From Thermoplasmata archaeon (GTDB lineage Archaea > Thermoplasmatota > Thermoplasmata > RBG-16-68-12 > JAFNFQ01): 64,000 nt of DNA. Both the position numbers and the translations under genes were made by a program. This document shows, piece after piece, positions 6,763 through 57,332 of this stretch (its first letter is position 1; every line of letters starts with the position of its first letter). The DNA is taken from the NCBI GenBank assembly GCA_041489255.1, contig JBGPQV010000002.1, positions 32,001 to 96,000 of the forward strand. The letters run 5' to 3'. The notes below the pieces were generated by a model. The model was given only the letters and a program-made list of their open reading frames with translations. It did no database searches and had not been told where the DNA came from.

Positions 6763-6860
6763 CTCCTGCCCGTGCCCAGAGGATGTCTTCCCCAGACTGG
6801 GCGATTCTCCAGAAAGACTCCTTCTCATTCTATATAACAGGAATCAGGTGGTTATCCCGG

Positions 6861-14800: not shown

Positions 14801-16669
14801 GTAGCGGAGCTGAGCGAAGGCAACAACCGAGCCAGCACGCAGGCGGGAGTCAGGAGCAAGCCCGACCTGAGGATCTCGATGGTGAATGTGGAGCCCGCGC
14901 CTCCCTTGATTGAGGGCGCACTCTCATGGGTGAACGTGACTGTTTCGAACTTCGGAGACACGGCATCCGGGACATTCGACCTCAACCTCTTCGATGATGG
15001 CGATGGCGACCAAATGCTAGACGTCGGAGAGGACGTCGGCGTCAAGTTGGTAGCCGACTTGATAGGGCACGCCCAGGTTTTTCCCTCCTTTACCTGGACT
15101 GCGATGCCGCCCGGAAGCCACAGCATGTGCGCGTACGCCGATCTGCCCGATGCGGTCGATGAATCGCAAGAGGACAACAACGTCGGATGCACAAGCATCC
15201 AGGTGAAAGCGAACATCAGACCAGAATATGTGCCAGTCCAGCCCCTGCCTCCAAGTCCCATCACCGTCGGACTCTCTCTTCCGGTACAGCTCTCAGTCAT
15301 AGTCGAGAACCGGGGCGACGCCCCCGCCGCAGACAACGCTATCCTTGCGTTCCACGATGGGGTTACCCCGCCATTCGCGACATTCGTCGTGCCTCCGCTC
15401 GAGCCCTCGACCGACTCGGTCAGGTTCACCGCCACCTGGGTTTCCCCGCCCACGCCAGGGATGTACAGGATCATCGCTGACGTCGACTTCGATGCGAATC
15501 TGACTGAATGGGACGAAGACAACAATACCTGCGAGTGGACGATCGATGTGGTTCGCGGTCCGATCACGTCACTCACGGTTGGGACGCCCAACTACACCCT
15601 TGCGGTTCCATATGTGACATCCTCAACGCCGCTGGAGTTCGCGGTGGCCGATCCGGGCGGGTCCGGCATAAGGTCAACGATGTACCGCATCGATGGCGGC
15701 GGATGGGACAACTATCCAACTGGCGGGCAGTTCACGATTGACACCGAAGGTGAGCATACAATCGAGTGGTACTCGGAGGACAATGCTGGAAACATCGAAA
15801 TCACGCGCAGCGCCATGCTCAGAGTAGACAACACGCCGCCGAGCTGCATACTCCGTGTCGGGATTCCGCAGTACCTGAGCGCTCCCACGTACGTCGACTC
15901 GACCACGCAATTCAATCTTAGTTGCACAGATAGCGGCATGCTTCCGGTTGGCTTGGACCGCATCGAGTACCGCATCGACGACGGTCAATGGAAGGCTTAC
16001 ACCATTGACTTCACCCTCCAGGGAATCGATGGCGTCAAGACCGTGGATTATAGGTCGTCCGACCTGCTCGCGAACACTCAGTCGACTGCGGGGATCTACT
16101 TCCTCGACGAGACCCCGCCTTCGACCTCGATTACCCCATCCTCGGAAGATGCGACCACAGATACTGTTTTCGCACTGGATGCCTTCGATGATGGCTGCGG
16201 AGTCGGATTCACCGAGTACAAAGTGGATGGCGGCAATTGGACCGTCTTCTCAGGCGGGTTCACCGTCCCCGAAGGAGAGCACAACTTCACCTTCCGTTCC
16301 GTCGACTGGCTGGGCAACCGAGAATCGGACAAGCTTCTGCATGTCCATGCGCGCCTGCTGACTGCGACCAAGGAAACGAACTTCAAGCCTTACGTCGCGG
16401 CCGCATTCGCCATCATATTGGCGGTGGTCGGATTGTGGTCGTCGAGACGCAGACCGTGGAATGGCGGGAAAAACAAGACCGCAATCGCGAAGGCATTCGT
16501 CGGGCTGTCATTGCCCTTCGTGTTGGGAGAAACTGCGACGGGCATAGCCTCCCAATTCACAGGGGAACTTGCGATACCGCCAATCATCGGCGTCGGAACG
16601 GCGGTCGATCTGGCCATACTCATCTTAGGATTGCTGACGGTCGTCGTCAGAATGGCCAAGAACAGGTAG
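11819..16669 (+). CDS. Surface protein with SBBP beta-propeller repeats, CARDB and Ig-like domains and a multi-TM C-terminal anchor
   Basis: FTENRGQ N-terminal domain; repeated LVYST(F/Y)(I/L)GG..D....IAVD..GNAYVTG.T.S.DFPTT.GA(F/Y)D; CARDB-like PDL...E..E.NN units; D.TPP Ig repeats. Confidence 0.9.
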   Translation: MCMRAALVSLRRARFWERWTASFLIIFSLVLPVVADLSSGGEVKEDLAEPPSNQRILDTMRSASDYFTENRGQVEDGVLFYRQGNPSVAFRTDGVMFVLSEATKVDERLGGRVRVDSSAYMIRFEGANLASPSGVNELSFRSNYFFGNDPARWQTDVPNYRSVVYRELWEGIDLVYHATAGGVKYEFLIGAHADAHLIRFSYDGVQATRDSTDGITARTAVGSTRDSKPYSYQADGREVACSFADRGDGSFGFDCPGRDLSQSLVIDPLVYSTFIGGHDDDWYCTMGQGDEAMSIAVDAAGNAFVYGGTCSTDFPVTAGAFNTTFWIRGAPRFAQPDCSPPCYCPQGEWCVDPHQTFVAKLNPEGSALVYATYMGGDGLDYPASIAIDSAGNAYLTGTTLSSGLQPGTNAYPTTAGAFDRTLDAYTLRTGQCWCCSIVFWEGFLTKLGPQGNALVYSTFIGRDRYEWPWAVTVDSSGFAYVTGETNGTNFPTTFGAYDTTYNGLDADADAFVTKFNQAGSGLVYSSFLGGDGYDVGTSIKVDPTGNAYVAGWTDSANFPTTPSAYDATANGYADAFVVRFDANGAKLDYSTLLGGSDREWEISVGIDAARNVYVSGTTKSFDFPTTPGAFRTVYIGREGFVAKMNPTMSSLVYSTFIGGNSDTDTVTSIDLDSLGNAYVTGQTYSGDFTTTKDAFDTVFSDREGFMTKINATGTGLLYSTFLGGSSDIDKGTSIVVDISGIAYVTGVTNSSDFPTTPDAFDRTLDNETDAFVFKLIPSIVTDPPDLLITPNDVILTPPGSVVVGTPVDIRAVVRNIGGRNATAVGVRFHDGLPPSPQIGTDQIIPFIMYFDSGSASVTWTSTSVGTHSICAVADPNNMIAELHEDNNQACAQIEILAANPDLAVQSGDISFSIPPPFIEGTQVRIDAIVRNIGILPSTATVARFHDGTPPAGQIGVDQPLGPLAAGGSGTVSVLWDASGRGVHTLWVVVDPNDVVAELSEGNNRASTQAGVRSKPDLRISMVNVEPAPPLIEGALSWVNVTVSNFGDTASGTFDLNLFDDGDGDQMLDVGEDVGVKLVADLIGHAQVFPSFTWTAMPPGSHSMCAYADLPDAVDESQEDNNVGCTSIQVKANIRPEYVPVQPLPPSPITVGLSLPVQLSVIVENRGDAPAADNAILAFHDGVTPPFATFVVPPLEPSTDSVRFTATWVSPPTPGMYRIIADVDFDANLTEWDEDNNTCEWTIDVVRGPITSLTVGTPNYTLAVPYVTSSTPLEFAVADPGGSGIRSTMYRIDGGGWDNYPTGGQFTIDTEGEHTIEWYSEDNAGNIEITRSAMLRVDNTPPSCILRVGIPQYLSAPTYVDSTTQFNLSCTDSGMLPVGLDRIEYRIDDGQWKAYTIDFTLQGIDGVKTVDYRSSDLLANTQSTAGIYFLDETPPSTSITPSSEDATTDTVFALDAFDDGCGVGFTEYKVDGGNWTVFSGGFTVPEGEHNFTFRSVDWLGNRESDKLLHVHARLLTATKETNFKPYVAAAFAIILAVVGLWSSRRRPWNGGKNKTAIAKAFVGLSLPFVLGETATGIASQFTGELAIPPIIGVGTAVDLAILILGLLTVVVRMAKNR

Positions 16670-16750: not shown

Positions 16751-19700
16751 TTGCGGACACTTGTCTACGCGATTGTGTGCTTCTTGATTGTGAGTGCAAT
16801 CCCGACCGCCATGGCGGCTGCGAAGCCTGTGGAATCCTTGCACGGAACGCAGCTGGGGCTCGTCGGGCTGGAATCTGGCCTTGCGCGATTCGCGCGGCTG
16901 AGCACGGCACCCCTAAGCGACTATGGCGGATATTCTGTCTATCAAGTCGGCGAGGAGGAAATCGCGCGGCTCGACTCGATCAACGCGCCATACTTCCTCC
17001 TTCCGGATCCGGACTATCTCGGTATCGAGTCTGTCGTCGGCTCGCTCCCCCGCATCGACACCGGCCAACTGCCGCCGTCACCGGGACTTGTCGTCATCCA
17101 GTTCCCAGCACCGCCGAAACAGGAATGGCGCCGCGCGCTCGAGGAGAATGGAATGATGACGCTGGCTTACATTCCTAATTATGCGTATCTTGTCGTTTCC
17201 TCTCGCGATCTTGGAGGAGCACTCACCGCTCTTCCCCTCGAACCTAGACTCTTCGCCTATGAGTCTTCGGCAAGAATCGACCCGCGGCTGATCTTGGACG
17301 AATCGCCACAACGCGTCCGTTTCGTGCTGTTGAAAGCCTCGGGCTTCGCCGATCCCATCGATGTGATGTCCCGCCACGGGCTCAGGCCACAGGTCTATTG
17401 GGAACGGGAATCGTTGGCTTTTGCCGAGACATGGGCCGATCGGGCAACCCTGGAAGCCATCACGCAGGAACCGTCCATGGTCTGGGTGGAGCCCGCGCCC
17501 ACGCCTAAGTTCTTCGACGAGATTTCCGACGAGATTCTCGGCGGCAACTTCACTCCTGGGATGCCCTGGGATGGCGATGGAGCCTACATCCATTCACTCG
17601 GCTACACGGGATCCGGAATCATCGTGGCGATAGCCGACACCGGCGTTGACACGGGCAACCTTACCACGATGCACCCCGACCTCAGAGGGCAGATCGCCGC
17701 CTTGATCGACTTCGGAGAGACAGATCCGAGCGACGGTGTCGCCGAGGACGGGTACGGCCATGGCACGCATGTGTCCGGCATCGTCGCGGGAACCGGAGCC
17801 TCCAACGGGCGCGATTTGGACGGCTACCTCTACGGAATGGGCATTGCCCCGAACGCCTCAATCGTCATGGAAAGAATCTCAGATGACCAAGGATATTGGA
17901 TGGCCCCGGCCGACCATGTAATTGCAGAGAACGCAGTCCGAAACGGAGCATCTGTCAGCTCTAATAGCTGGGGCAGCATGACATACGGAGTCTATGACTG
18001 GCAGGCGGCTGAGTACGATGCATTGACGAGAGACGCGGACTTGTTCACTCCGGGTGGACAACCACTCCTTCATGTATTCGCGGCAGCGAACTCGGGCCCG
18101 AGTCCGTACACGCTCGCGTCACCCGCCGTGGCGAAGAATGTGCTCACCGTCGCGGCGAGCGAGAACTACCGCCCAGCGTTCGGCAGCGAGGCCGACAACC
18201 CGGAGGATATCGCGGATTTCAGCAGCCGCGGCCCCGTCGCGGACGGCCGATTCAAGCCCGATATCGCAGCGCCGGGGACATATGTCGCGTCAGCCCTCTC
18301 CAGCTTCCTGGCGCAGGGCATGTGCGGTGGTCCTCTTGACTCGCTGCACGAAGCTTGCTCGGGGACGAGCATGGCCACGCCGCATGTGGCTGGCGGGGCT
18401 GCGATTTTCCAGCAATACTATCGAGGCTTATACGGCGTCCTCCCGAGTCCAGCAATGACCAAGGCGGCTTTGATCAACACCGCGCATGATATGACTGGCG
18501 CCGGCGCCTCCCTGCCGATCCCGAACACCGACGAGGGCTGGGGCAGGATGGACCTCGTATCCCTCCTGGGGTTGGGCAGGCCGGACGAGTATGCGGACGA
18601 CCAGACGAATTCTCTCCAGACCGGTCAAGACTCGGTTCACCAACTGACAGTGATGTCGTCCGCGGTACCGCTTCGGATCACCATGGCCTACACGGACGCC
18701 CCGGCGGCGGGGTTCTCGTCGCCGACTCTCGTCAATGACCTGGACCTTGTCGTCACCGACCCAACCGGCCGCACGTTTTGGGGAAACATGCTGGTGAATG
18801 GACGGTCGATAGACTCGATCACGGGAGGAGATAGACTCAACAACGTCGAGAGCGTCTACATCCAGAATCCGGAAGTCGGCCTCTACACCGTGAGGGTCTT
18901 GGCAATCAACGTGCCCGAGGATGGAGTGCCTTTGACTCCCGCAATCGACCAGGATTTCGCGCTCTTCGCCAGGGCGAGCCTGGAAGCTCCGCCTACGCCG
19001 TCGATTTCATTTAACCGCGACTTCTACACGGCGCCATCGAACGCGAATGTGTCGCTGGCGGGCGCAAGCCTGAACGCGGATCCTCTCGTCCGCGAATCGG
19101 TCAACGCCGTCGTGAGATCTGACACTGAGCCGCTCGGCGAGAGCCTCACGCTCACTGAGGTCGGACTCAACTCAAGCCTGTTCATCGGGACAATCGGGCT
19201 TCAGCTCGGCGCACCCGTGACAGACGGGGTTCTGCAGGTTCTTCACGGAGACCTGTTGAATGTGACGTACACCATGTATTACGACGTGGCATGGGTCGAT
19301 ACCGTCGCCCCAACGATTTCCAATATCGCCACGAACGTGAGGACTCGCACAGCGACCGTGACATTCACGACGAGCGAGGATACCAAGGGCCTCGTGGAAT
19401 ACGGCGATACGACTTCCCTCGGCAACATCTCGGAGTCGCTTTCCTTCGCGGTCTCGCACAGCGTCGACCTGGTCAATCTCAAGCCGAACACAACTTACTT
19501 CTTCGATGTCGTCGCGACGGACCTGGCAGGCAATCGGGCGCGAGATGACAATGGCGGCCTGCACCACGCTCTGACGACCGAGCCCCTGCCTCCGATCCTC
19601 CTTGTCGACGACGAACCGGACAACCTCGACGTCTCATTTTCCGACGCGTTAAGCGCCAACGGCTTCGCTTTTGAAGTGTCGCAGGGTCCCGCGCCTTTCA

Positions 19701-22687
19701 ATCTGATGAAGGACTATCGAATCGTAATCTGGACCACGGGGGCAGACGGCTTCGATACATTGACAGCAAGCGATGAGAGCGCGCTGGCGTCCTACCTGGA
19801 TGGCGGTGGCAGCCTATTCCTGTCGAGCGAAGGCTACCTCTGGAGAGGCGTCTCCTTATTCACCCAGAGGTATCTCCATGTGGCAAGTTCTTCGCCGCTC
19901 ATCAACCCGCTCACCTCGGTGCAGGGCGTTCCCGGGGACCCGATATCGGGAGATTTCCCCGACATGGCCCTCAGTTACCCGCAGTCCATAAGCGCACAGA
20001 GCCTTGATCCAGATCTGATCGCGACCGGGATATTCGAAGAACCCCTGGGCACGAATGTTGCGGTCAAGGCGGACGCGGGCACTTACCGCGTCGTTTTCTT
20101 CGCATTCCCGTACGAGGCCAGCTACCTTGCGGATTCCCTGGCAGGCACCCAGCTGATGTACCGCATCATCCAGTGGTTTGGATTTGGGATAGGGGTAGAC
20201 CTCGCTGTCGTGGGCGTCACGGCACCAGCCTTCGCTCCTCCCGGCGCAATCGTTCAGGTGAACGCCACAGTTGTGAATCACGGTGCGTCGGCGGAGGTGA
20301 ACGTATTGGTCAACTTCACGGTCGATGGAGCCCCGGTCGATTCTCAGATGATTCCGTCCATCGACGCTGGGAAGTCAACCGATGTGAGCTTCCAGTGGAC
20401 AGCATCGACGGAGACGACGCACAGCTTGACCGTCGAGGTGTCGCCCGCGCCTGGAGAGACCGTGTTGTCCAACAATGCGCGCTCGGTGACCGTCCTGGTG
20501 ACCTCGGCTCCTCCGATCAAGGTCGCGGTCATCGACTCCATGGGCACGCAGAATCCTTACTTCTGGGACTATCTTCAATTGAATTGGCCCTCCTTTGGTC
20601 CTGTCCCGATCACGGTGGACACAACCACTCTCGCGGGGTCAGGTTTCACCTATGCGGATATCGTCTCCACGAAAGCCAATGTCCTCGACATCTCGTGCGG
20701 CATGAGGGAATACACCACTCAAGAAATCGCCGCAATCGAGCAGTACCTCCAGGGTGACCGAGGCCTCGTCGGCACCTGCACCATCTCGTCGACGACACCT
20801 GGCAACGCGCCTTTGGCGCGACTCTGGGGCATTTCGGACAGTTTGCCGTTTACGTACTATTCGGTCGCACCGGTCACACCCATAAGTCCGTCGAATCCAC
20901 TGTTCAGGAACGTGACCGTCCCATACACTCCCGGTTTACCCATCGGCACCTCGCCGTCCAACGACCTTTCCTGGGACGCGGATGATCTGACGACTGGGAC
21001 ATATGCCGGGATATCGTTGCCTGTGCGCTCCTCGGCCGTGGTGACAAACGGCCTGAACGTCTACTTCTCGCCGTTCGTGGATGTGGGCGACGCGATCATC
21101 ACGACTGAAGACGACTATCAGATCATGTACAACGCATTGATGTGGGCGGGAAGCGGGGCTGGAATCGCAGTGAGTCACGCTGCACCCCCAAGCGCCGAGG
21201 TGAACACGCCTTTCGACGTCACTGCCAATCTATCTTCGAATTACGATATCGTGTCGGTGGAGGCGTGGTATCAGCCCCCGGGCAGTCCGAGTTACCAGTC
21301 GGTCCCGATGAGTCTCGTCATGGGCAGCCCCACGAACGGGACATGGTCTGTGACGATCCCCAGTCAGAGCGCGATTGGCCCGCTGCACCTGTACGTCGAG
21401 GCCACGAACACTGGGGGAAGGAACGCGACGACGCAGAAGACGACGGTGCGGATAGTTGACACGACAGCACCTGTCATTATCGATATAACCTCGGGAATCC
21501 CTGTGACTCACTCGCCATTCACGTTCGCCGCATCAGTCACTGACAACCTGGCGGTCGGCTCGGTCCATGTGGAATACTGGTACGGGACAGGCGGCCACAC
21601 GAATCTGACAATGATATTGGCGGGAGGACTATACCAATCCACGATCACTGTCCCAAACACGACGGCATCGCTGTCCTACAAACTGTCCGCGGTTGACTCG
21701 GGCGGTCTCTGGACGGTGACGAACGCCGTGACGCTGAGCGTCTCCGACCCATATCCGCCAACGGCAGTCGTCAACGACCCATTTGAAATTGAAGAGGACC
21801 GCCTCGCGAGGTTCGACAGCGCGGGCAGCTGGGACAACGTGGGCATAGTGAACTTTACTTGGGACTTCAGCGACGGAATAGTGCTCTACGGCGCCGTGGT
21901 CTTCAGGATCTTCGCTGACCCCGGGCGGTATGATGCCACGCTGACCGTTCGCGACGCGGCATCGCTGACCGGAGTGGCAAGCACGTTTGTCCTCGTAACC
22001 GACACAACACCACCAGTCGCAAGAATCTCCGTGCCAGCATCAGTCGATGAGGACACGGCGTTCATTGCCAACGGGTCGGGCTCATCAGACAACGTCGCGG
22101 TCGTGAACTTCACATGGAGCATCAACGGCATCCCTGTCGCTTGGGGGCCAATCGCGATCCTCACCGTCTGGAACCCCGGGCTCGTGGGTGTCACTTTAGA
22201 CGTGCGCGATCTCGCTGGCAACAACGCGACCGCCGCTTCAGCGGTGACAGTGCGCGACATCACCCCGCCACTCATCTTGATCGACGGGGGAACCACCACA
22301 CGCAAGATTAGCGCGGGAGACTCGCTGAGCTTCGACGCTTCCGGAACCACCGACAATGTCGGAGTGCACGCAATCTCGTGGGATTTCGGCGACGGAACGA
22401 ACGCGACCGGGTCCGCCGCGAACCACAGGTTCGAGAAGCCTGGAACGTACACATTGACCGTGAGGGCGTTCGATGCGGCGGGCAACGCCGCCTCGGTGAC
22501 CATCCGAGTCGACGTCGAAGACTCTGGCCTCTATGCCGTCGTCGGAATCGGCATCTTGATTGCGGCGGTGGCTCTCGGCGTGGCATACCTCGTTTGGGCA
22601 AGACTCCGCTCGCGTCGAGTCAAAGAGCCGACGAAAGAGAGCGAGAAAGAGGAGGAAATGCCCACGGAAAACCTGGGTAATCACTGA
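16751..22687 (+). CDS. Membrane-anchored S8 subtilisin-like serine protease with FN3, CARDB and PKD domains
   Basis: Triad IADTG / HGTHVSG / GTSMATP, oxyanion AAAN; WDFGDG PKD motif; signal peptide and C-terminal TM. Confidence 0.93.
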   Translation: MRTLVYAIVCFLIVSAIPTAMAAAKPVESLHGTQLGLVGLESGLARFARLSTAPLSDYGGYSVYQVGEEEIARLDSINAPYFLLPDPDYLGIESVVGSLPRIDTGQLPPSPGLVVIQFPAPPKQEWRRALEENGMMTLAYIPNYAYLVVSSRDLGGALTALPLEPRLFAYESSARIDPRLILDESPQRVRFVLLKASGFADPIDVMSRHGLRPQVYWERESLAFAETWADRATLEAITQEPSMVWVEPAPTPKFFDEISDEILGGNFTPGMPWDGDGAYIHSLGYTGSGIIVAIADTGVDTGNLTTMHPDLRGQIAALIDFGETDPSDGVAEDGYGHGTHVSGIVAGTGASNGRDLDGYLYGMGIAPNASIVMERISDDQGYWMAPADHVIAENAVRNGASVSSNSWGSMTYGVYDWQAAEYDALTRDADLFTPGGQPLLHVFAAANSGPSPYTLASPAVAKNVLTVAASENYRPAFGSEADNPEDIADFSSRGPVADGRFKPDIAAPGTYVASALSSFLAQGMCGGPLDSLHEACSGTSMATPHVAGGAAIFQQYYRGLYGVLPSPAMTKAALINTAHDMTGAGASLPIPNTDEGWGRMDLVSLLGLGRPDEYADDQTNSLQTGQDSVHQLTVMSSAVPLRITMAYTDAPAAGFSSPTLVNDLDLVVTDPTGRTFWGNMLVNGRSIDSITGGDRLNNVESVYIQNPEVGLYTVRVLAINVPEDGVPLTPAIDQDFALFARASLEAPPTPSISFNRDFYTAPSNANVSLAGASLNADPLVRESVNAVVRSDTEPLGESLTLTEVGLNSSLFIGTIGLQLGAPVTDGVLQVLHGDLLNVTYTMYYDVAWVDTVAPTISNIATNVRTRTATVTFTTSEDTKGLVEYGDTTSLGNISESLSFAVSHSVDLVNLKPNTTYFFDVVATDLAGNRARDDNGGLHHALTTEPLPPILLVDDEPDNLDVSFSDALSANGFAFEVSQGPAPFNLMKDYRIVIWTTGADGFDTLTASDESALASYLDGGGSLFLSSEGYLWRGVSLFTQRYLHVASSSPLINPLTSVQGVPGDPISGDFPDMALSYPQSISAQSLDPDLIATGIFEEPLGTNVAVKADAGTYRVVFFAFPYEASYLADSLAGTQLMYRIIQWFGFGIGVDLAVVGVTAPAFAPPGAIVQVNATVVNHGASAEVNVLVNFTVDGAPVDSQMIPSIDAGKSTDVSFQWTASTETTHSLTVEVSPAPGETVLSNNARSVTVLVTSAPPIKVAVIDSMGTQNPYFWDYLQLNWPSFGPVPITVDTTTLAGSGFTYADIVSTKANVLDISCGMREYTTQEIAAIEQYLQGDRGLVGTCTISSTTPGNAPLARLWGISDSLPFTYYSVAPVTPISPSNPLFRNVTVPYTPGLPIGTSPSNDLSWDADDLTTGTYAGISLPVRSSAVVTNGLNVYFSPFVDVGDAIITTEDDYQIMYNALMWAGSGAGIAVSHAAPPSAEVNTPFDVTANLSSNYDIVSVEAWYQPPGSPSYQSVPMSLVMGSPTNGTWSVTIPSQSAIGPLHLYVEATNTGGRNATTQKTTVRIVDTTAPVIIDITSGIPVTHSPFTFAASVTDNLAVGSVHVEYWYGTGGHTNLTMILAGGLYQSTITVPNTTASLSYKLSAVDSGGLWTVTNAVTLSVSDPYPPTAVVNDPFEIEEDRLARFDSAGSWDNVGIVNFTWDFSDGIVLYGAVVFRIFADPGRYDATLTVRDAASLTGVASTFVLVTDTTPPVARISVPASVDEDTAFIANGSGSSDNVAVVNFTWSINGIPVAWGPIAILTVWNPGLVGVTLDVRDLAGNNATAASAVTVRDITPPLILIDGGTTTRKISAGDSLSFDASGTTDNVGVHAISWDFGDGTNATGSAANHRFEKPGTYTLTVRAFDAAGNAASVTIRVDVEDSGLYAVVGIGILIAAVALGVAYLVWARLRSRRVKEPTKESEKEEEMPTENLGNH

Positions 22688-49798: not shown

Positions 49799-50725
49799 GT
49801 GGATGGCTTCGCGGCTTTCCGCGTCCTCACCGGTCTGGCTTTCCTCGGCTTCGCCTCATGCCGAGACTTGAAAACGCGCCGCGTTCCCGATGAGGTCTGG
49901 ATCGTGATGGGCGTCTTGGCCCTGGTTTTGCTCGAGGTCGAACTCGTCCAAGGGGGAGCCTCCTGGGAACATCAGCTACTCCTTGTCCCGACTGCGATTA
50001 TCTTCTTCGGCGTCTTCTTCGGGGAGGAGATGTGGACCGAGGAAGGATTCAGATTGAGACCCATCAGACTCATCGTCTACGCAGTTGCAGGCCTGCTCTT
50101 GGCGTTCCTCGCGTATCATTTCTGGAGCACGAGCGGCAGCGATTCCAATGCGTTCTGGGGCCACCTGAGCATGCCCATAATGCTCGTCCTCGCTCACGTG
50201 TTTTACCAGTTCGGGTTGCTTCGCGGCGGGGCGGATGCAAAGGCGTTCATGTCGATTGCCATCCTCGTGCCAATCTATCCGAGCATTGGACCCGGACTAC
50301 CGCTCGTTAGTCTCTCCCCGACCATCCAGCATGCCGTCGATCTGATGTTTCCTTTCGCGCTCGTCGCCCTCCTTGACGCTGCGCTCCTGCTTGTGTTCCT
50401 ACCGCTGTTCTTCCTGGTATTCAATGCATTACGTGGAGACGCCAAGGGAATCCAAGCACTTTTCGGCTACCGAGTCGGCATCGACAAAGTGCCCAAGTTC
50501 GTCTGGCTGATGGACAGGGTGGAGAACGGCAAGCATCTCAGGATCCTTCTGCCTCGGAAGAGGGAGGACCGGAATGAACAGATCGCGAGGCTACGAGAGA
50601 AAGGCTTCGACCGCGTGTGGGTGACGCCGCAGATTCCATTCCTCGTGCCCATGACCTTCGGGTTTGCCGCGGCCTTCCTTGTGGGCAACTTCAGCTTAGG
50701 CCTGACGCTGCTGTTCGGGCGGTGA
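49799..50725 (+). CDS. A24 prepilin/preflagellin peptidase (FlaK/PibD-like)
   Basis: DLKTRRVPD, GGADAKA, VWVTPQIPFLVP; GTG start after TATA ttatataa at 49771. Confidence 0.88.
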   Translation: MDGFAAFRVLTGLAFLGFASCRDLKTRRVPDEVWIVMGVLALVLLEVELVQGGASWEHQLLLVPTAIIFFGVFFGEEMWTEEGFRLRPIRLIVYAVAGLLLAFLAYHFWSTSGSDSNAFWGHLSMPIMLVLAHVFYQFGLLRGGADAKAFMSIAILVPIYPSIGPGLPLVSLSPTIQHAVDLMFPFALVALLDAALLLVFLPLFFLVFNALRGDAKGIQALFGYRVGIDKVPKFVWLMDRVENGKHLRILLPRKREDRNEQIARLREKGFDRVWVTPQIPFLVPMTFGFAAAFLVGNFSLGLTLLFGR

Positions 50726-50740
50726 ATGAGCGGGATTCCG

Positions 50741-50760
50741 GAAAAAGAAGCCTTTTATAG
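50741..50760 (+). promoter_or_regulatory. Archaeal BRE/TATA promoter of the 5S-like RNA
   Basis: Purine-rich gaaaaagaag followed by TTTTATAG, about 25-30 nt upstream of the RNA start. Confidence 0.6.
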
Positions 50761-50785
50761 GGCCGATGTTCTACTTCCCGACAGC

Positions 50786-50976
50786 AGTGGTACGACGGTC
50801 AAAGCGGCGGTGATACACCCGGTCTCTTTCCGAACCCGGAAGTTAAGCCCGTCCACGTTCTCCGCTGTACTGTGGTGCGCGAGCACACGGGAAGCCTATC
50901 CCCGTAAGGGGCCTCCGGCAAGCGACCTAGGTACGCTAGCCGCCTACCCTTGTGGTAGGTGACGAAACGTACCGCT
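50786..50976 (+). rRNA. rrf: 5S rRNA (or 5S-derived RNA) with an atypical, expanded 3' part
   Basis: 50788-50895 carries 5S hallmarks: ACACCCGG..CCGAAC.CGGAAGTTAAGC, loop E TGTA/GGAA, GCGA tetraloop. After 50895 the sequence is non-canonical; 50968-50976 can pair with 50786-50794. Confidence 0.8.
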
Positions 50977-53900
50977 TTAACGGCCGTTTGTCGGTGGAAC
51001 GCTGTCGGCCACTGCCTCGCGCTTCTTTCTCTTTCTGCTGAGGAACCTCTGGCCCGCGAAGATGAACATGGGTATCGCGATCGGGATGATCACGTCCTGG
51101 AATTCAGGGATGATCACGGTTGCCGACGCCTTGCTCTCCGACAATTTATACCCACTCTGCGAGGTGTAGTTCAGGAACACCCAGTTCACCAGTATCGAGT
51201 TCTGTGCAGGGTTCTTGATCTGCACCGTGATCGTGAAGCTGTGCGCGCCCGGACCCACGTTCGCGAAAATCCAACGGTACGTCTGGCCGCTCCACGAAGA
51301 AGGAGCGACGCTCGCTCCGAGATACGTCACGTCGGTCGGCAGCGTGTCGTTGATCCACACCCTCAGGGCGTTGGCGCTGCCCGTGTTGTTGAAGTAGATT
51401 GTGTAGGTGACGATCGCACCAGGGACCGTCACAGATGGCGATGCAGTTTTCTCAACCTTGATTGTCGGCCTCCGGCACGTGAAGTTCGCCCACGAAACGC
51501 TGCGCTCCATCCATCTGCCAAGCTGATCCGTGTAGTTGCCGAAGACCGTGTTCACTTGGAGGGTGCTATCCTGGGCATTTCCGTTCACCTGAGCGATAAT
51601 CGTGAACGACCTTGGAGCTCCAGCAGGAACATTGGCGAATCTCCATCTGTAGGTGTTCCCGCTCCAGGAAAATGGAGGGACGCTGCTGGAGTAGAAGGTG
51701 ACTCCGGCAGGGAGTGTGTCGTTGATCCACACCGCTCTCGACACTGCATCGCCCGTGTTGTTGTAATAGACGGTGTATTGGACGTAGTCGCCCGGACCAG
51801 CGATCAGCACATTCAGCGTTTTCACGACCCTGATGATTGGGCGATATCTGTCGTTGGGCCCACCTCTGGTCGGAATGCTGGACACATACCAATCTGAATT
51901 CGCATCCGTGTCGACTGGTTTGCCGTCGCTCGCCGCTTTGAATCGGGCCCAAGTCTGCGTCGTGCTGATCGAGGGATATGTAGTCGCATCGACAATCGTG
52001 TTGGCTGAATCCCTGAGGATAATGTTGCCGTTGGAACCCGGGAGGTCGCCTGAGGGAATATTGACCGAGAGATACTCGGCGCCGCTCAACCACGATCCGA
52101 TAATCTCCGTCGTGAATGTGTAGATTGTGATGTACTTGTTCCCTTTGATGATCTGCAGTCTCCACCCACTGAGAGCGACCGGAGAGGATGTGGGGTTCGC
52201 GAGTTCCACCCACGCGGCTCCTTTTTGAGGATATATCTCGTTGATGACAACGTTGTCGCCAGCAGGGGATCGCACGCCGTATCTCCCTCCCCTCGTGAGG
52301 AGAGGTGAGACTGAGTCGGTGTCGCGCAACCAGTCGGTCATGTAGACGATGACCCTGAAACCTGGCACGAGGCCGAACACGGTGGCATTCGCCGCCATCT
52401 CCAACCTGCCAGAGTCGATGGCAGCCGCGACATTTCCCATCCATTCGAACGGCACATTCGCGTTCGGGCGGTACCTGAAAAGGCTCGCATTGTTGAGCTG
52501 CCCCTGGCGCCCATTCGCCACGAGCGCATAGTCGACACCATAGACCTGGCCTTCGATCTCCGTATAGAGACCTGTCGCAGTGCTGTTGTCCGCGTCGACG
52601 TACGCAAATGCCGTGTCCATGCCGGTGGGGACGTTGTAGGAGAAAGGCCCCACGTATCGCGACACAATCCTCCCTGCGTAGGGAGCTGGGAAATAGCTAG
52701 GGATCGTCGCGTTGAGCCAGAAGTCCGAGCCTGCGGGATAATCGAGAACGCCGTCCGCATCAACATCGCCATTCGATTGACTGTCAGGGGTTCCGTCGTT
52801 GTTGAAGTCATCCGGAAGAGAATCTATTGAGTCGGGCACCGTGTCCCCATCTGCATCCGTGAATTGCGCTGGAATCGGCCTTTCTCTGAGATTGGGTAGG
52901 TCCTCACCACCAAGCATCCGACCCTGAACCTTCATGTAGAAAGCGAAATCGGCAGTGACATTCAGCCCGACCTCCGCGATGTCGACGTTCGTGTTGATCG
53001 ATTCCAGGCCTCCGGAGGAGCGCACATCCCATAGTCCGTCCCTTTGAACCTTCGCCGCGTCCCAATCCCCAAACACCCCATCGATGGTCACCTTGGGCGC
53101 TTGGCGGTAGTAGGTCCCCGAGATAATCGAGTCCTTGAGATCCACGAGTGAATTTGTGGATATGGCAGAAACCTTGAGCGTCAGCGAGCTCGCATCCGGG
53201 GCAGCTGAGAGGTGCGCAACCACGAAGAGCGAGACGCTCTCCCCCTCTCTAATCGTCAGGTCGACTCCGAGACTGCCGATTCCAGAGATGAACGAGGATG
53301 TGTTGAGCAGCGTGTCAGCAGGCTCGTACGTCCCATCGTTGTCGTCAAGATGAAGGCTCAGCACCACGGACTGGTCGGGCATCGAACCCTGCTTGGTGAC
53401 GTTGACGGCATGGATTGTGCTCGAACCTGCCTCGGCCCGCAGGCGCACATAGAGGAAAGCTTGATCGTCAACCGTCATGATGTCGCTCACGAGAGTCCTC
53501 TGGGTCACTGCGAGCGTGGAATATGCCACACATGCGACGTCATCCGCGATGTCGATCACTCCGGTCGTGTTCGCGGTTAGAACGATGATGTGGGCCTCGC
53601 TTGGTTCGGCCAACGGCATCATGAACTCGAGCATGCTTCCTGAAGTCGCTGCCGCGATCGCATTTCTGTGCGAGAACGCAGAGAGATTGTTCTGACCCCC
53701 GCCAAGCCCCGAAGTCCATTCCGAGACTCTCGAACCCGCCATCTTTCCATCATAGCCGCTGATCAGAACGTCCATATCGGCACCTATGCCGCCTATCGAA
53801 TATCCTGTGGACGGTCGCCCGTCCGCGTCCACCATGATTATGATATAATCAATGAGGTCCGGTGCGGCGGGAGCACTCGGTGTGTCGAACATGACTCCGT

Positions 53901-55674
53901 CGACCTCGACATATACGGCGAGCTGCCCATCTTGCGAGGAGACCTTTGTTGATACGATATCCAGGTCAGAGCGGTAGGAGACATTGGCTCCCCTTGTGTC
54001 CCCGACCGCGTCGTCATGCGTCGGGATTCCTGCCCAGTCTGAGAAGCTGCCATCGACTCTCAGGATCGTCGTCTGAGGCCCGCTTGGGATGAGAGTTGCT
54101 ATCAACGGCGCGAGGAGGAGAATCGCGATTACGGCAGCGACTACGCCTGCGGACCTGAACCAGCCTCGTTCCGCACGGTAGATCGGCTGGAACCTTCCGC
54201 GCCTTCCGTTGGTGAAGCCGTTCCCATTCACTAGGCCGTTCACATGACCTATGCCGTTGACGAGGCCGTACACTCTCCCCAAGCCGTTGACCAGGCCGTT
54301 GGTCCTCCCGATGCCGTTCACAAGACCGTTCGTCCTTCCGAGACCGTTGACCAAGCCGTTCGTCCGGCCAATGCCGTTAACCAAGCCATTGGTTCGGCCT
54401 AGCCCGTTGACAAGGCCGTTGGTTCTCCCGATCCCGTTGACCAGCCCGTTGACGCGCCCTTCCCTCGGCGTCCCTTTTGCGCGGGGAACGCCGACCGTCC
54501 TCAGACCTTCGAGAGCTTTCCGCTCGCCCTCCATCTTCATGCGGCGGACGTCTTTGGCGCGCGCCCTCGATGTGTCAGCCTCCTCGTTCCTGCCAAGCCT
54601 CTGCAAGAGCTCCGCCCTCGTCTCCCACGCGACATCGAGCCTCGAATCCGATCGAAGGAGGCGCTCGTAGTAGCTGAGCGCTTTCTGGATTGCCGATATC
54701 TCCGTGGCAGGTTTCTCCGGCGGCGCCATCGCCGACCATCGTGGCGGTATCAAGGACGAGTCGGCCAGGGTCTCGGCCAGGTTCAGGACCTGCAGTCTGT
54801 ACTCCTCATCCCTGGCGGGATTGATCTTCGCTGCCCTCTCGAGGCATTGCACCGCCTCCTTGGGCCGCCCGAGCTCACGGAGAACGTGCGACTTCAGTAC
54901 CCAAGCCCTTTCGAGCTTCGGGTCAACTTCCAGCAGTTCTTCGTAGTGTCTCAACTCCTCGCCGAGCTGGTCCGCTCTTGTCGGAGTCTTCTCGGCGACC
55001 CTCTGCCAGCGGGCGAGGAAGTCTTGGGAAACGCCTTTGCTTTCCTTGATCTCTGGGGCCGGGATTTCCCCAAGAACGGTTTCCTCGGCGGATGAATAAC
55101 CGCATATGCCGCACCTCTCTGCCCCGGGAGCGAGGAAGGCGCCACAATGGGGGCAGACCTTGACCTCCTCCTTCTCAACCTGTGTGACGACTTCCCTGGG
55201 GAGCTCCTCCTCCACCGCCTCAGCCTCTTCGATCACCTGATGGCATGTGGAACAACTCTCGGCATCCTTGGACAGGAATGCGCCGCAATTGGAGCAGATA
55301 TAGAGCGCCGGCTGCTCGGAGACTCCCTTGGCGGGCTCCGCCGCTGGAGCAGGCGCCCCGTCTTCCTCCTCTTCGAACTCCGTGCCGCATTGAGGACAGA
55401 TCTCCGAGTCTGCACTGGCGAATGCGCCGCAGACAGGGCAAATGAACAGCTCCGCCTTATTGGAATACCATCGGTCGCCTATGGAGATCGACTCGGAGGC
55501 CTTCGCCCTCACCGCGGTTGCCTCCTCCAGGGAGAGCACGCATGATTCCGCGATCGCCTCCGGAGTGGCATCCGCAAGGTCATCGATCCGCGGGTACCTT
55601 GCGCGGACTCTCGCCGCCTTCTCGCGGTCGAGGTCGCAGGTCGTCAGTAGCCACTCTTCGTACAGCTCATCCAT
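50977..55674 (-). CDS. 1565-aa membrane-spanning protein: zinc ribbons, TPR, NG-repeat, TM, extracellular sugar-binding-like/LTD/DUF11 domains, PEF-CTERM
   Basis: Three CxxCGAF...CxxC pairs; TPR-like helices; TM GVVAAVIAILLLAPLIATLI; two (I/V)DG.F.DW domains; VVINEI..WVELANP (lamin-tail-like); two DUF11-like units; IPEF-TM-RKRKKR. Confidence 0.88.
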   Translation of the reverse strand: MDELYEEWLLTTCDLDREKAARVRARYPRIDDLADATPEAIAESCVLSLEEATAVRAKASESISIGDRWYSNKAELFICPVCGAFASADSEICPQCGTEFEEEEDGAPAPAAEPAKGVSEQPALYICSNCGAFLSKDAESCSTCHQVIEEAEAVEEELPREVVTQVEKEEVKVCPHCGAFLAPGAERCGICGYSSAEETVLGEIPAPEIKESKGVSQDFLARWQRVAEKTPTRADQLGEELRHYEELLEVDPKLERAWVLKSHVLRELGRPKEAVQCLERAAKINPARDEEYRLQVLNLAETLADSSLIPPRWSAMAPPEKPATEISAIQKALSYYERLLRSDSRLDVAWETRAELLQRLGRNEEADTSRARAKDVRRMKMEGERKALEGLRTVGVPRAKGTPREGRVNGLVNGIGRTNGLVNGLGRTNGLVNGIGRTNGLVNGLGRTNGLVNGIGRTNGLVNGLGRVYGLVNGIGHVNGLVNGNGFTNGRRGRFQPIYRAERGWFRSAGVVAAVIAILLLAPLIATLIPSGPQTTILRVDGSFSDWAGIPTHDDAVGDTRGANVSYRSDLDIVSTKVSSQDGQLAVYVEVDGVMFDTPSAPAAPDLIDYIIIMVDADGRPSTGYSIGGIGADMDVLISGYDGKMAGSRVSEWTSGLGGGQNNLSAFSHRNAIAAATSGSMLEFMMPLAEPSEAHIIVLTANTTGVIDIADDVACVAYSTLAVTQRTLVSDIMTVDDQAFLYVRLRAEAGSSTIHAVNVTKQGSMPDQSVVLSLHLDDNDGTYEPADTLLNTSSFISGIGSLGVDLTIREGESVSLFVVAHLSAAPDASSLTLKVSAISTNSLVDLKDSIISGTYYRQAPKVTIDGVFGDWDAAKVQRDGLWDVRSSGGLESINTNVDIAEVGLNVTADFAFYMKVQGRMLGGEDLPNLRERPIPAQFTDADGDTVPDSIDSLPDDFNNDGTPDSQSNGDVDADGVLDYPAGSDFWLNATIPSYFPAPYAGRIVSRYVGPFSYNVPTGMDTAFAYVDADNSTATGLYTEIEGQVYGVDYALVANGRQGQLNNASLFRYRPNANVPFEWMGNVAAAIDSGRLEMAANATVFGLVPGFRVIVYMTDWLRDTDSVSPLLTRGGRYGVRSPAGDNVVINEIYPQKGAAWVELANPTSSPVALSGWRLQIIKGNKYITIYTFTTEIIGSWLSGAEYLSVNIPSGDLPGSNGNIILRDSANTIVDATTYPSISTTQTWARFKAASDGKPVDTDANSDWYVSSIPTRGGPNDRYRPIIRVVKTLNVLIAGPGDYVQYTVYYNNTGDAVSRAVWINDTLPAGVTFYSSSVPPFSWSGNTYRWRFANVPAGAPRSFTIIAQVNGNAQDSTLQVNTVFGNYTDQLGRWMERSVSWANFTCRRPTIKVEKTASPSVTVPGAIVTYTIYFNNTGSANALRVWINDTLPTDVTYLGASVAPSSWSGQTYRWIFANVGPGAHSFTITVQIKNPAQNSILVNWVFLNYTSQSGYKLSESKASATVIIPEFQDVIIPIAIPMFIFAGQRFLSRKRKKREAVADSVPPTNGR
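54206..54460 (-). repeat. In-frame 30-bp (10-aa) tandem repeat GR(T/V)NGLVNG(I/L), about 8 copies
   Basis: Visible in both translation and DNA; copies differ mostly at synonymous positions. Confidence 0.95.
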
Positions 55675-55768: not shown

Positions 55769-56461
55769 TCAATTTACAAGGGTACCGTAGGGATCCAGGG
55801 GGATTGACAACACCCCTTTTCCCCTCCCTTTCCCAATCCTGAGCTGGAGCTCCGTTTCCGTCCGTCTGAGGACCTGCGGCGACTGCCTTTCGTCCTCGAG
55901 GCGCGTCAAAATCCGCTCGACATATGCCCTCGCCCTCAGATGCTGCTTTTCCTGCTTGTCCTTGAGCACATTGGTCGGATACAATCTCGTGAACCTTCCA
56001 TCTATCGCGACCGTGACGAGACCGAGCTTCTCTAGTTCTGACGCGACCTTGCTGGCGGTCTGCCTGCTCGCGTTCATCGCCCCAGACAACTCGACCTTGG
56101 AGATGCCTGGCGACTCTACGATACTCCTCAGGGCATCACGCCTTTTCGAGGTACGAAGGGTGATGAAAAGATCCGCATCCGCCGGGTCAACGAAGTCCTT
56201 GGGGTAGTAGACCTTTTCGTCATGGCGGTGAACCACATATCCTCCGGAGACGAGACTCCGCAGATGCCAGACGACCGAGCTGGACGACATCTTTAGGTCG
56301 CTCGCAATCTTGCCGCCTGTCGTGAAGGGTCTTAGACTGAGATATTCCAGAATCCGGCGCCTGTGAGCGTTGAGGAGCGGTGACGTGGCGGGAGCGGGAG
56401 ACTCCGCTTTCTCTTTCCCGTCAAGGGCGTCTTGCAGCGCCTTGCCAATCCCTTTGAGCAT
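55769..56461 (-). CDS. Double winged-HTH transcriptional regulator
   Basis: RRRILEYL...IASDLKMSSSSVVWHLRSL and SPGISKVELSGAMNASRQTASKVASELEKLGLV. Confidence 0.85.
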   Translation of the reverse strand: MLKGIGKALQDALDGKEKAESPAPATSPLLNAHRRRILEYLSLRPFTTGGKIASDLKMSSSSVVWHLRSLVSGGYVVHRHDEKVYYPKDFVDPADADLFITLRTSKRRDALRSIVESPGISKVELSGAMNASRQTASKVASELEKLGLVTVAIDGRFTRLYPTNVLKDKQEKQHLRARAYVERILTRLEDERQSPQVLRRTETELQLRIGKGRGKGVLSIPLDPYGTLVN

Positions 56462-56462
56462 C

Positions 56463-57332
56463 CTATCCCTCTGAGTACTCCGCCAGAATGCTTTCTATAA
56501 GGTGCTCAGCCTTCAGCGTCTTGAAATCCTCGTCGCTGAGACCCTCGAGAGCCTTTTGCACGCTCTCTTGGATCCCCTTGGGGAGAGGTTTCTTCTGCTG
56601 CAGCACATCTCTAATCTGCGACGGTATCTTCGTCGTCAACTCGCGCTTGTAGGCGTTCGAGTCGACTATCAGCCCGAGGCCTTTCATGATCTTGTAAGGA
56701 TGCGAGAGTTCGCTGTGCTTCGTCGAACGGGCCTTGATGATCTTCAGCAATCGTATCACACTTCCCTCTGCCGCCTTGTACTTGAGGTGTATGACACAAT
56801 CCGCGAGGTACATCGGTATGATGGTCTCAGGGCCGGTCAGCTCGCCCGGGCCGTGCTCCTCGAGCGTGCACAGGACTGTTCCGACCCTGCGGGTCTCCTT
56901 CAACATGAAACCTATGAGGTCCCTCTGCTCATACTGGTCCTTGGTCGACCAGAGCACAGGAGTGAGAGGGTCGACGGCAATCCTCGTGTTGGCGCCTTTC
57001 CAGTCCGCCACGAATGCGGGAAGCTCCTTGCGGATGAAGTTGCTGAACTCCCGCCCGGACGCGTCGATGAACACGAGCAGCCCGTCCTCGAGATAGTCCA
57101 GGATGTCCGACCAGCCCATCTCGATGGCCTCGCGGATTATCTGCTCCTTGTTCTCGTCGAGGGAGACGAAGATGCCCTCCTGCCCTTCCTGGAGCCCGCG
57201 CCTGATGAACTGAGTCGCGCAGGTGGTCTTTCCGGCCCCGGACGAACCGATGACGACCGTCGTGCTGTTCTCGTTGAAGCCGCCGTCCAAGAGAGGATTG
57301 AGGCCGAAAATCCCACTCTTAATCTTGCGCAC
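56463..57332 (-). CDS. KaiC/RAD55-like ATPase (single domain)
   Basis: KSGIFGL..LLDGGF, GSSGAGKTT, FVSLDE, YLADCVIHL, IIKAR.TKH. Confidence 0.9.
   Translation of the reverse strand: MRKIKSGIFGLNPLLDGGFNENSTTVVIGSSGAGKTTCATQFIRRGLQEGQEGIFVSLDENKEQIIREAIEMGWSDILDYLEDGLLVFIDASGREFSNFIRKELPAFVADWKGANTRIAVDPLTPVLWSTKDQYEQRDLIGFMLKETRRVGTVLCTLEEHGPGELTGPETIIPMYLADCVIHLKYKAAEGSVIRLLKIIKARSTKHSELSHPYKIMKGLGLIVDSNAYKRELTTKIPSQIRDVLQQKKPLPKGIQESVQKALEGLSDEDFKTLKAEHLIESILAEYSEG

Follow-up and report, generated by a model that had tools for sequence, protein, structure and literature searches.

The window analysed here, a stretch of 64,000 nucleotides from a Thermoplasmata archaeon (contig JBGPQV010000002.1, positions 32,001 to 96,000 of the forward strand), carries on its minus strand a giant open reading frame (ORF), P0001, whose predicted product is the subject of this report. 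The ORF runs towards a convergent 5S rRNA gene, while genes for a KaiC-like ATPase and for a protein with two winged helix-turn-helix (wHTH) domains lie directly upstream of it on the same strand. The genome in question is 96.5% complete. An original prediction, made from the letters of this DNA, had noted the ORF and a series of modules in it, and had interpreted the product as a scaffold or receptor spanning the envelope, with an extracellular loop that can be processed at its C-terminus. The ORF and almost all of the modules listed there are confirmed; the interpretation is supported in part. The ORF and its parts are as follows, with residue numbers referring to P0001 and the evidence given in brackets.

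50977..55674, minus strand: the whole P0001 ORF, 1565 amino acids plus stop codon, with an ATG start.
55465..55674, minus strand: (HhH)2-like (double helix-hairpin-helix) helical head, residues 1-70 (confident model, structural alignment).
55090..55452, minus strand: three four-Cys zinc ribbons with acidic linkers, residues 75-195 (Pfam, alignment).
54499..55032, minus strand: helical domain of the tetratricopeptide repeat (TPR) type, residues 215-392 (Pfam TPR families, model).
54163..54462, minus strand: Asn-Gly decapeptide repeats, residues ~405-504 (sequence, alignment).
54082..54162, minus strand: signal-anchor transmembrane (TM) helix TM1, residues 505-531 (hydropathy peak, modelled helix, basic N-terminal flank).
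53524..54072, minus strand: first DG.F.DW domain, a CBM9-like beta-sandwich, residues 535-717 (predicted structure).
53095..53523, minus strand: beta-sandwich resembling the carbohydrate-binding module (CBM) of sialidases, residues 718-860 (structural alignment).
52270..53094, minus strand: second DG.F.DW domain, interrupted by an Asp-rich DxDxDG insertion, residues 861-1135 (invariant motif, structural alignment).
51976..52269, minus strand: lamin tail domain (LTD), residues 1136-1233 (PF00932, 42.1 bits against a Pfam cut-off of 34.3).
51130..51831, minus strand: two DUF11 / TIGR01451 repeats, residues 1282-1515 (Pfam, NCBIfam).
51019..51117, minus strand: sorting-type tail, residues 1520-1552 (invariant motif, conserved in homologues).

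The ATG start is backed by homologues that align with P0001 from residue 1 (MDESYLEWL...). A 19-residue Kyte-Doolittle scan of the protein revealed only two hydrophobic stretches, at residues ~505-531 and 1528-1541, and found no hydrophobic segment at the N-terminus before the first of these, in keeping with the earlier remark that a signal peptide is missing. TM1, with a hydropathy peak of 2.96, is modelled as a helix over residues 503-528 and is preceded by the basic sequence RRGRFQPIYRAERG. The distribution of residues on its two sides is strikingly uneven: residues 1-504 contain no N-X-S/T sequon and 15 cysteines, whereas residues 535-1520 contain 17 sequons and two cysteines. Because hydropathy, charge, and the distribution of sequons and cysteines all agree, an N-in signal anchor followed by an exported glycoprotein-type ectodomain is indicated, and the sequence strongly supports a two-anchor membrane protein whose N-terminus is inside (N-in), whose ectodomain of ~1000 residues is outside, and whose C-terminus is inside again. 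In this topology TM1 serves as the N-in signal anchor, and the tail, with its PE[FLMY] motif, TM helix and basic cluster, brings the chain back to the membrane as a second anchor. The topology proposed in the original prediction is the same.

A word-indexed search returned 340 homologues of P0001, and most of the 120 listed are full-length, with 33-45% identity. They fall into size groups of 1440-1620 and 2200-2400 residues and are named as proteins of Thermoplasmata or Methanomassiliicoccales metagenome-assembled genomes (MAGs). At least three Asn-Gly words, a terminal hydrophobic segment and a PE[FYWL] motif are present together in 84 of the 120, and a further 13 show the same features with PEM, SEY or GEY as the motif. 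The architecture is conserved across Thermoplasmata MAGs in full-length form, and the homologues are single genes rather than pairs of separate genes.

A scan of all reading frames of the P0001 genome detected six ORFs that end in a PE[FY] motif, a hydrophobic segment and a basic cluster. Each of them possesses an Asn-Gly stretch that leads into a TM helix, and each is homologous to P0001 at residues ~350/470-930. A signal peptide is absent from all six, its absence being the rule rather than an exception for PE[FY]-tailed ORFs of this genome. The parts outside this core are exchanged, the heads consisting of TPR only, of almost nothing, of a zinc ribbon plus HhH, or of KaiC plus TPR, and the distal ectodomains of DUF11/LTD, of FG-GAP repeats, or of unknown sequence. 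In the paralogue C28, a KaiC domain (98 bits, Pfam) is fused to the head, while the head of a second paralogue, C24, is KaiC-like by eye only, with no Pfam KaiC match at the threshold used. Under a broader PE[FLMYIWV] rule, two further ORFs with PEL ends are recovered that do not share the core homology (C16, 416 aa; C17, 468 aa). The window also holds three other giant ORFs, at 1114-6828 (minus strand, 1904 residues), 11819-16669 (plus strand, 1616 residues) and 16751-22687 (plus strand, 1978 residues), which are not among the PE[FY]-tailed ones.

The class extends well beyond this genome. When residues 400-860 were used as the query of a full HMMER scan against 1.84 billion representatives, 623 cluster representatives matched at E<=1e-3, of which 381 reached E<=1e-10 and 91 reached E<=1e-30; the matches begin at very different distances from the N-termini of the proteins. 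A PE-type tail was present on 79 of 134 newly found representatives, many of the remainder being fragments. Literature searches did not retrieve a description of the P0001 architecture, and Makarova et al. 2017 might hold related ones; the family is undescribed as far as these searches show, yet it is built from known parts.

The cytoplasmic part of P0001 was modelled with a mean pLDDT of 66.4. Residues 1-70 form a confidently predicted helical head (pLDDT 81-93), which VIA structural alignment matched to the HhH domain of DisA (3c1y_A; Z 9.7, root-mean-square deviation (rmsd) 2.0 over 65 aa) and to the AR domains of NusA (Z 8.9-9.1; rmsd 2.0-2.5 with DisA included). Relatives of P0001 carry PF14520/PF12826. 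The HhH-like start described earlier stands as far as the (HhH)2-like fold is concerned, but the hairpin Pro13-Gly14 that is nearly invariant among relatives is replaced by Cys-Asp in P0001. What had been taken for three double zinc ribbons are three single four-Cys ribbons with 12 cysteines in total; Pfam Zn_ribbon_3 matches three times over residues 77-194 (E 1.4e-13), DZR is matched as well, and in an alignment of 22 sequences ten of the 12 cysteines are invariant, the exceptions being the second pair of the third ribbon. The ribbons are modelled with moderate confidence, and the acidic linkers between them are predicted to be disordered (pLDDT <50).

The TPR domain recognised in the original prediction is matched by Pfam TPR families over residues 235-373, is modelled with high confidence (pLDDT 91-98) and aligns structurally with TPR proteins at Z ~10. 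It is followed by the Asn-Gly decapeptide repeats, which had likewise been described and which end in the nearly invariant juxtamembrane sequence NGLVNGNGFTNGRRGR, just before TM1. This region is modelled without a fixed structure (pLDDT ~30) and is the best-conserved part of the protein, with 55-62% identity to distant orthologues as against 27-51% elsewhere. The corresponding values are 41% for the TPR domain, 33% for the tail, 27% for the head and 27-29% for the first two ectodomains, the last two being the least conserved.

The ectodomain over residues 535-1135 was modelled with 30 orthologues to a mean pLDDT of 82.3. Pfam gave no match over these residues, a PDB sequence profile search with the ectodomain gave none at E<=1, the ESM Atlas held no usable match for residues 535-1135, and a whole-model Foldseek search gave only multi-domain matches with low TM-scores, so that per-domain VIA alignments were used instead. 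The two DG.F.DW domains reported earlier begin at the invariant D541/F544/W547 and at the invariant D865 G866 F868 D870 W871. The first aligns with Sas6 (7uwu_A; Z 10.5, 168 aa), with the gamma subunit of ethylbenzene dehydrogenase (2ivf_C; Z 10.3) and with CBM9 (1i82_A; Z 10.1, rmsd 3.7, 154 aa), its likeness to CBM9 being one of predicted fold. Residues 718-860 resemble the N-terminal carbohydrate-binding module of GH33 sialidases (6myv_C; Z 14.3, rmsd 2.4, 137 aa), the next unrelated class being integrin calf domains at Z ~8. The third ectodomain, which contains the second DG.F.DW motif and is again CBM9-like, aligns with the C-terminal domains of glucodextranase (1ulv_A / 1ug9; Z 10.1-10.3 over model positions 195-601). 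As to the calcium-binding repeats proposed earlier, the Asp-rich DxDxDG stretch is present at residues ~940-985, near a short segment of low confidence (pLDDT <50 at ~926-938), but calcium is a motif-level guess that no Pfam match accompanies. Further along the chain, both the lamin-tail-like domain and the two DUF11-like domains of the original prediction pass the respective cut-offs, the former with the PF00932 score given above, and the latter with 77 bits for two stretches of PF01345 (cut-off 24.6) and 70.1 bits for TIGR01451 (cut-off 24, E 1.1e-19). These CBM-like and adhesin-like modules would bind a glycan or a surface.

Such an ectodomain raises the question as to whether P0001 is a structural protein of the envelope or of adhesion (a coat, a stalk or a cell-cell contact), with KaiC and wHTH merely regulating its expression or assembly and no signal passing through it. 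Its large, glycoprotein-type ectodomain contains only beta-sandwich, LTD and DUF11 modules, as is typical of adhesins and coats, its paralogues carry FG-GAP repeats, no enzymatic or ligand-gated domain is recognisable in it, and the locus sits in a conserved core-genome neighbourhood next to PolD and the 5S rRNA gene. We nevertheless regard this explanation as somewhat unlikely, since a passive anchor would not need the 500-residue cytoplasmic head that has been conserved (TPR 41%, Asn-Gly 55-62%), since the fusion of KaiC to the C28 head (98 bits) puts the ATPase physically on the receptor, and since coat proteins normally carry signal peptides.

The C-terminal tail has the tripartite layout of PEF-CTERM signals, namely a motif (IPEF, residues 1522-1525), a hydrophobic helix (TM, 1528-1541) and a basic cluster (QRFLSRKRKKR, 1543-1552, including RKRKKR at 1547-1552), as had been noted from the sequence. 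P1523 and E1524 are invariant in 31 orthologues. A six-frame scan of the whole genome with the PEF-CTERM hidden Markov model (HMM), TIGR03024, produced four matches, three of which are tails of the present class (22.2, 13.6 and 12.4 bits, the best being that of paralogue C20), and none of 14 control genomes reached the cut-off in the same mode. The P0001 genome possesses two archaeosortase genes, one for ArtA (128 bits against a cut-off of 75) and one for an ArtC-like protein (L001:1252-2442, G000:C13). The latter has TIGR03762 as its best match (62.9 bits), carries the family signature TIGR04178 (47.7 bits against a cut-off of 23) and retains Cys233, Arg279 and His304, which are invariant in an alignment of 14 sequences. 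ArtC is said to recognise PEF-CTERM (PMC5244752).

Across 151 genomes of the class, in which a strong ArtC-like match was counted against a P0001-like match (the chassis), 56 have both, five have the ArtC-like protein only, 18 have the chassis only and 72 have neither; whole families in this sample possess both or neither. The tail may be read as a divergent PEF-type signal handled by the ArtC-like archaeosortase. Processing would swap the C-terminal helix for another anchor, by analogy with ArtA substrates, and the N-terminal helix would keep the processed P0001 tied to its cytoplasmic head.

The C-terminal segment may alternatively be an ordinary, uncleaved stop-transfer anchor, with PE[FLMY] kept for interface or packing and the ArtC-like protein serving other substrates; we consider this possible, if rather doubtful. 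The scores reach neither the TIGR03024 nor the ArtC equivalog cut-off, 18 of the 74 chassis-bearing genomes do not have a strong ArtC-like match, the motif varies among homologues (PEF, PEL, PEM, PEY, SEY, GEY), and a protein that is anchored at its N-terminus needs no sorting to stay on the cell. Conversely, the tripartite layout is kept beside unrelated preceding domains (DUF11, FG-GAP or unknown), and P1523 and E1524 do not vary even though identity over the whole tail is just 33%. Furthermore, no other candidate substrates of ArtC were found in the genome, where 25 ORFs with an IPPL-type tail pair more naturally with ArtA, and the families of the class sample have both chassis and ArtC-like protein or neither.

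Several observations on archaeosortases and tails stand apart from this argument. The IPPL-type tails (...TGQLSIPPLxGxGTAxDLxILxxG...R) form a second and larger tail family, with 25 ORFs such as G000 C7:77251-81747, C16:35667-40196 and C10:27591-30632, many of them large proteins with signal-peptide-like N-termini. Because the genome has ArtA (128 bits) and nothing above 11.4 bits for PGF-CTERM (TIGR04126), this tail may be an undescribed sorting signal of the ArtA type. Within the same order, the ArtC-like archaeosortase carries a C-terminal Cys/His-rich extension (CxxC...CxCG..H..C...CPxC, residues ~343-387), which is missing from the ArtC-like proteins of more distant relatives and which, on its own, also matches other large ORFs in related genomes. 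The genome contains three FemAB-family paralogues (G000:C13:20920-21921, C1:305922-307918), one of which adjoins the ArtC-like gene and a UDP-glucose dehydrogenase gene. A FemAB-like gene adjoining the ArtC-like gene was considered as a component of the system and rejected, since just 11 of the 151 genomes yielded one; the adjacency is absent elsewhere, the nearest pair lying ~11 kb apart on the same contig (G091).

The two genes upstream of P0001 are the following.

55769..56461, minus strand: a 230-aa protein with two winged-helix domains of the ArsR/MarR type (Pfam HTH_24, MarR).
56463..57332, minus strand: a 289-aa single-domain KaiC-like ATPase (PF06745).

The ATPase matches PF06745 with 128.9 bits (cut-off 26.6), reached no equivalog cut-off in NCBIfam, and has a family-specific C-terminal extension of 65 residues. 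Its Walker A motif, GSSGAGKTT, is nearly invariant among 29 sequences, with only the second residue varying. Of 43 testable loci, with a matched head and 1800 nt or more of sequence available upstream, 42 have the KaiC-like gene upstream (39 at >=55% identity) and 40 the wHTH gene; both genes are present in 40, and the loci with a missing partner are L051, L058 and L059. In eight loci of the long subfamily, KaiC and wHTH are retained although the PolD flank is absent. Among paralogue-type loci, KaiC is found upstream in only two of 12, and C28 has MarR and KaiC genes of its own upstream. With an identity across loci of 62-73% (mean column identity 78%), compared with ~54-69% (mostly 58-66%) for PolD DP2, the KaiC-like ATPase is more conserved than the large subunit of PolD, and its sequence conservation therefore points to a core cellular role.

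An ATPase of the RecA/KaiC superfamily, a wHTH protein and an HhH head might all bind DNA, so that P0001 would be a DNA-related membrane tether, acting in uptake, segregation or anchoring near replication genes. The match of residues 1-70 to the HhH domains of DisA and NusA, and the divergent PolD DP2 gene next door in 32 of 43 loci, are in line with such a role. We consider it very improbable, as the hairpin Pro-Gly is lost in P0001, the head is the least conserved part (27% identity) and is swapped for TPR or KaiC domains in paralogues, and eight loci retain KaiC and wHTH without PolD. The (HhH)2 domains of the NusA AR type are, moreover, protein-binding modules, and the ATPase matches KaiC chains far better than RecA (E 1.2e-39 versus 6e-4).

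We lean, by a modest degree, towards P0001 being a surface sensor or adhesin that has two anchors and a divergent tail of the PEF type and is coupled to KaiC. As a bitopic surface glycoprotein, P0001 would form a three-gene module together with the KaiC-like ATPase and the double wHTH protein, in which it would act as membrane sensor, adhesin or anchor. In this module, the (HhH)2 / zinc-ribbon / TPR head would recruit or regulate the KaiC-like ATPase, the flexible Asn-Gly repeat would hold the head under the membrane, and the ATPase would in turn control the wHTH regulator. The earlier idea of a receptor is strengthened by these conserved partners.

A number of points weigh against this reading. 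The coupling of head to KaiC and of KaiC to wHTH is putative and drawn from gene context and domain fusion, and the Asn-Gly repeat has no confident structure in the model. The CBM-like folds, at Z 10-14, indicate the shape of the modelled domains and not a ligand. The six paralogues share a core, and the pairing of N-terminal anchor and tail could reflect common descent instead of functional coupling. Unrelated flanks are syntenic too (PolD DP2 in 32 of 43 loci, an A24 peptidase in 29 of 43), and part of the conservation of gene order, including the PolD DP2, 5S rRNA and A24 peptidase flanks, is simple relatedness. The PEF-CTERM assignment of the original prediction falls short of the TIGR03024 cut-off of 23 bits, the P0001 tail scoring 6.5 bits (E 10) when isolated and 12.4 bits, over model positions 1-13 only, in the six-frame scan. 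Similarly, the search for an archaeosortase did yield an ArtC-like gene with the family signature, but at 62.9 bits it lies below the TIGR03762 cut-off of 100. Finally, the co-occurrence of the ArtC-like protein and the chassis is confounded by phylogeny, relatives not being independent, and is supportive only; of the 18 chassis-only genomes, three have weak ArtC matches.

More ambitious, and in our view an unlikely extension, is integrin-like signalling in Thermoplasmata, outside-in or inside-out, built on a dedicated protein class, in which an N-in receptor fixed under the membrane by its Asn-Gly repeat, a PEF helix exchanged by the ArtC-like archaeosortase for a second anchor, a swappable head (HhH, zinc ribbon and TPR, or a fused KaiC), a KaiC switch and a wHTH output would act together. 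If this were true, it would represent the first defined receptor input of the archaeal KaiC network and the first class of sortase substrates without signal peptides. For the KaiC-coupled surface sensor or adhesin that we favour, the significance is closer at hand. The inputs of many archaeal KaiC-like ATPases are largely unknown, and the module is a concrete and widely conserved candidate, whose parts (one receptor, one ATPase and one DNA-binding protein) can each be expressed and tested. The class comprises several hundred sequence clusters that are now annotated only via accessory domains (lamin tail, DUF11, TPR, HhH). In it, an archaeosortase-type tail is found on proteins that are anchored at their N-terminus as well and possess a cytoplasmic domain, which widens the range of possible carriers of such tails.

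The extreme C-terminus of P0001 is to be read together with the neighbouring rRNA gene.

50977..51018, minus strand: residues 1553-1565 and the stop codon, a read-on into the antisense of the 5S rRNA 3' end (36 nt of overlap, 50977-51012).
50788..51012, plus strand: convergent 5S rRNA gene of ~225 nt (Rfam, consensus fold, metatranscriptome contigs).

In 25 of the 120 listed homologues the protein ends precisely with the peptide VAD[SG]VPxxxxR (VADSVPPTNGR, residues 1555-1565, in P0001), which was considered as a cytoplasmic peptide or TPR ligand. This candidate was rejected, the peptide being the antisense of the conserved 5S 3' end. Of the 54 tail-bearing ORFs that do not end in this peptide, 22 have its coding sequence immediately behind the stop codon, in frame after the stop in 15 (mostly TAG, also TAA and TGA) and in the +1 or +2 frame in seven. 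At loci L009-L054 the end of the receptor ORF falls within the 3' end of the 5S rRNA gene or coincides with it. An ORF without a stop codon of its own runs on to a conserved TAA or TAG in the rRNA antisense and therefore acquires a false conserved C-terminal peptide; residues 1553-1565 are probably not functional protein.

The 5S rRNA gene is itself enlarged. Rfam matches it with 64 bits over 50791-50910, with helix I mispaired, and no other 5S rRNA match occurs in the genome. When 21 sequences are folded to a consensus, the 5' end pairs with a strand lying ~115 nt past the Rfam match; this fold keeps the canonical helices, places a hairpin and a long arm in between, and shows compensatory changes at 23 of 63 pairs. 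Flanked by the loop E/helix V region on one side and by the 3' strand of helix I on the other, the insertion of ~115 nt is a conserved feature of 34 distinct sequences at related loci. In four studies, metatranscriptome contigs run across the boundary of core and insertion (for example 50793-50983 without a difference, and 50831-51009); none extends beyond ~51009 or before 50793, and the contigs cannot fix the ends or the strand. None of them covers 51032-51400, which is uninformative on the expression of the receptor gene. ARAGORN detected no tRNA at positions 50000-52000. Expanded archaeal 5S rRNAs are described for Halococcus, Halalkalicoccus, Halodesulfurarchaeum and Halomarina (PMC7812874), and the word stem 'Thermoplasmat' does not occur in that survey.

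Among known systems, the closest to P0001 in its tail are the PEF-CTERM proteins (TIGR03024), predicted substrates of archaeosortase C, which share with it the layout of Pro-Glu-Phe, hydrophobic helix and basic cluster; they too are large surface proteins, and in the present case an ArtC-like archaeosortase is encoded in the same genome. P0001 differs from them in a tail that stays below the HMM cut-off (12.4 versus 23 bits, with 22.2 for the best paralogue), in replacing the signal peptide with a cytoplasmic head of 500 residues and a signal anchor of N-in orientation, and in a sortase that scores below the ArtC cut-off and bears a C-terminal Cys/His-rich extension. The model of archaeosortase action is provided by ArtA of Haloferax volcanii and its PGF-CTERM substrates, where the S-layer glycoprotein is cleaved at the motif and its C-terminal helix is replaced by a lipid anchor; motif and sortase subfamily differ from those considered here, and the ArtA substrates, unlike P0001, have signal peptides.

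KaiC-family ATPases have been proposed as archaeal signalling hubs, as stated in PMC5847659, which cites Makarova et al. 2017. As in those hubs, a single-domain KaiC-like ATPase is here encoded with, or fused to, putative inputs and a wHTH output, whereas the input proposed here is a giant two-anchor surface glycoprotein. Finally, integrin alpha calf domains, MSCRAMM proteins and Bap-type stalks resemble P0001 in being a string of beta-sandwiches on a single-pass anchor with a cytoplasmic tail or head, and FG-GAP repeats are even present in P0001 paralogues. The likeness to integrins is at the level of fold only (Z ~8), with no sequence relation, and P0001 has the opposite orientation (N-in), a second, C-terminal anchor and no known beta-subunit.

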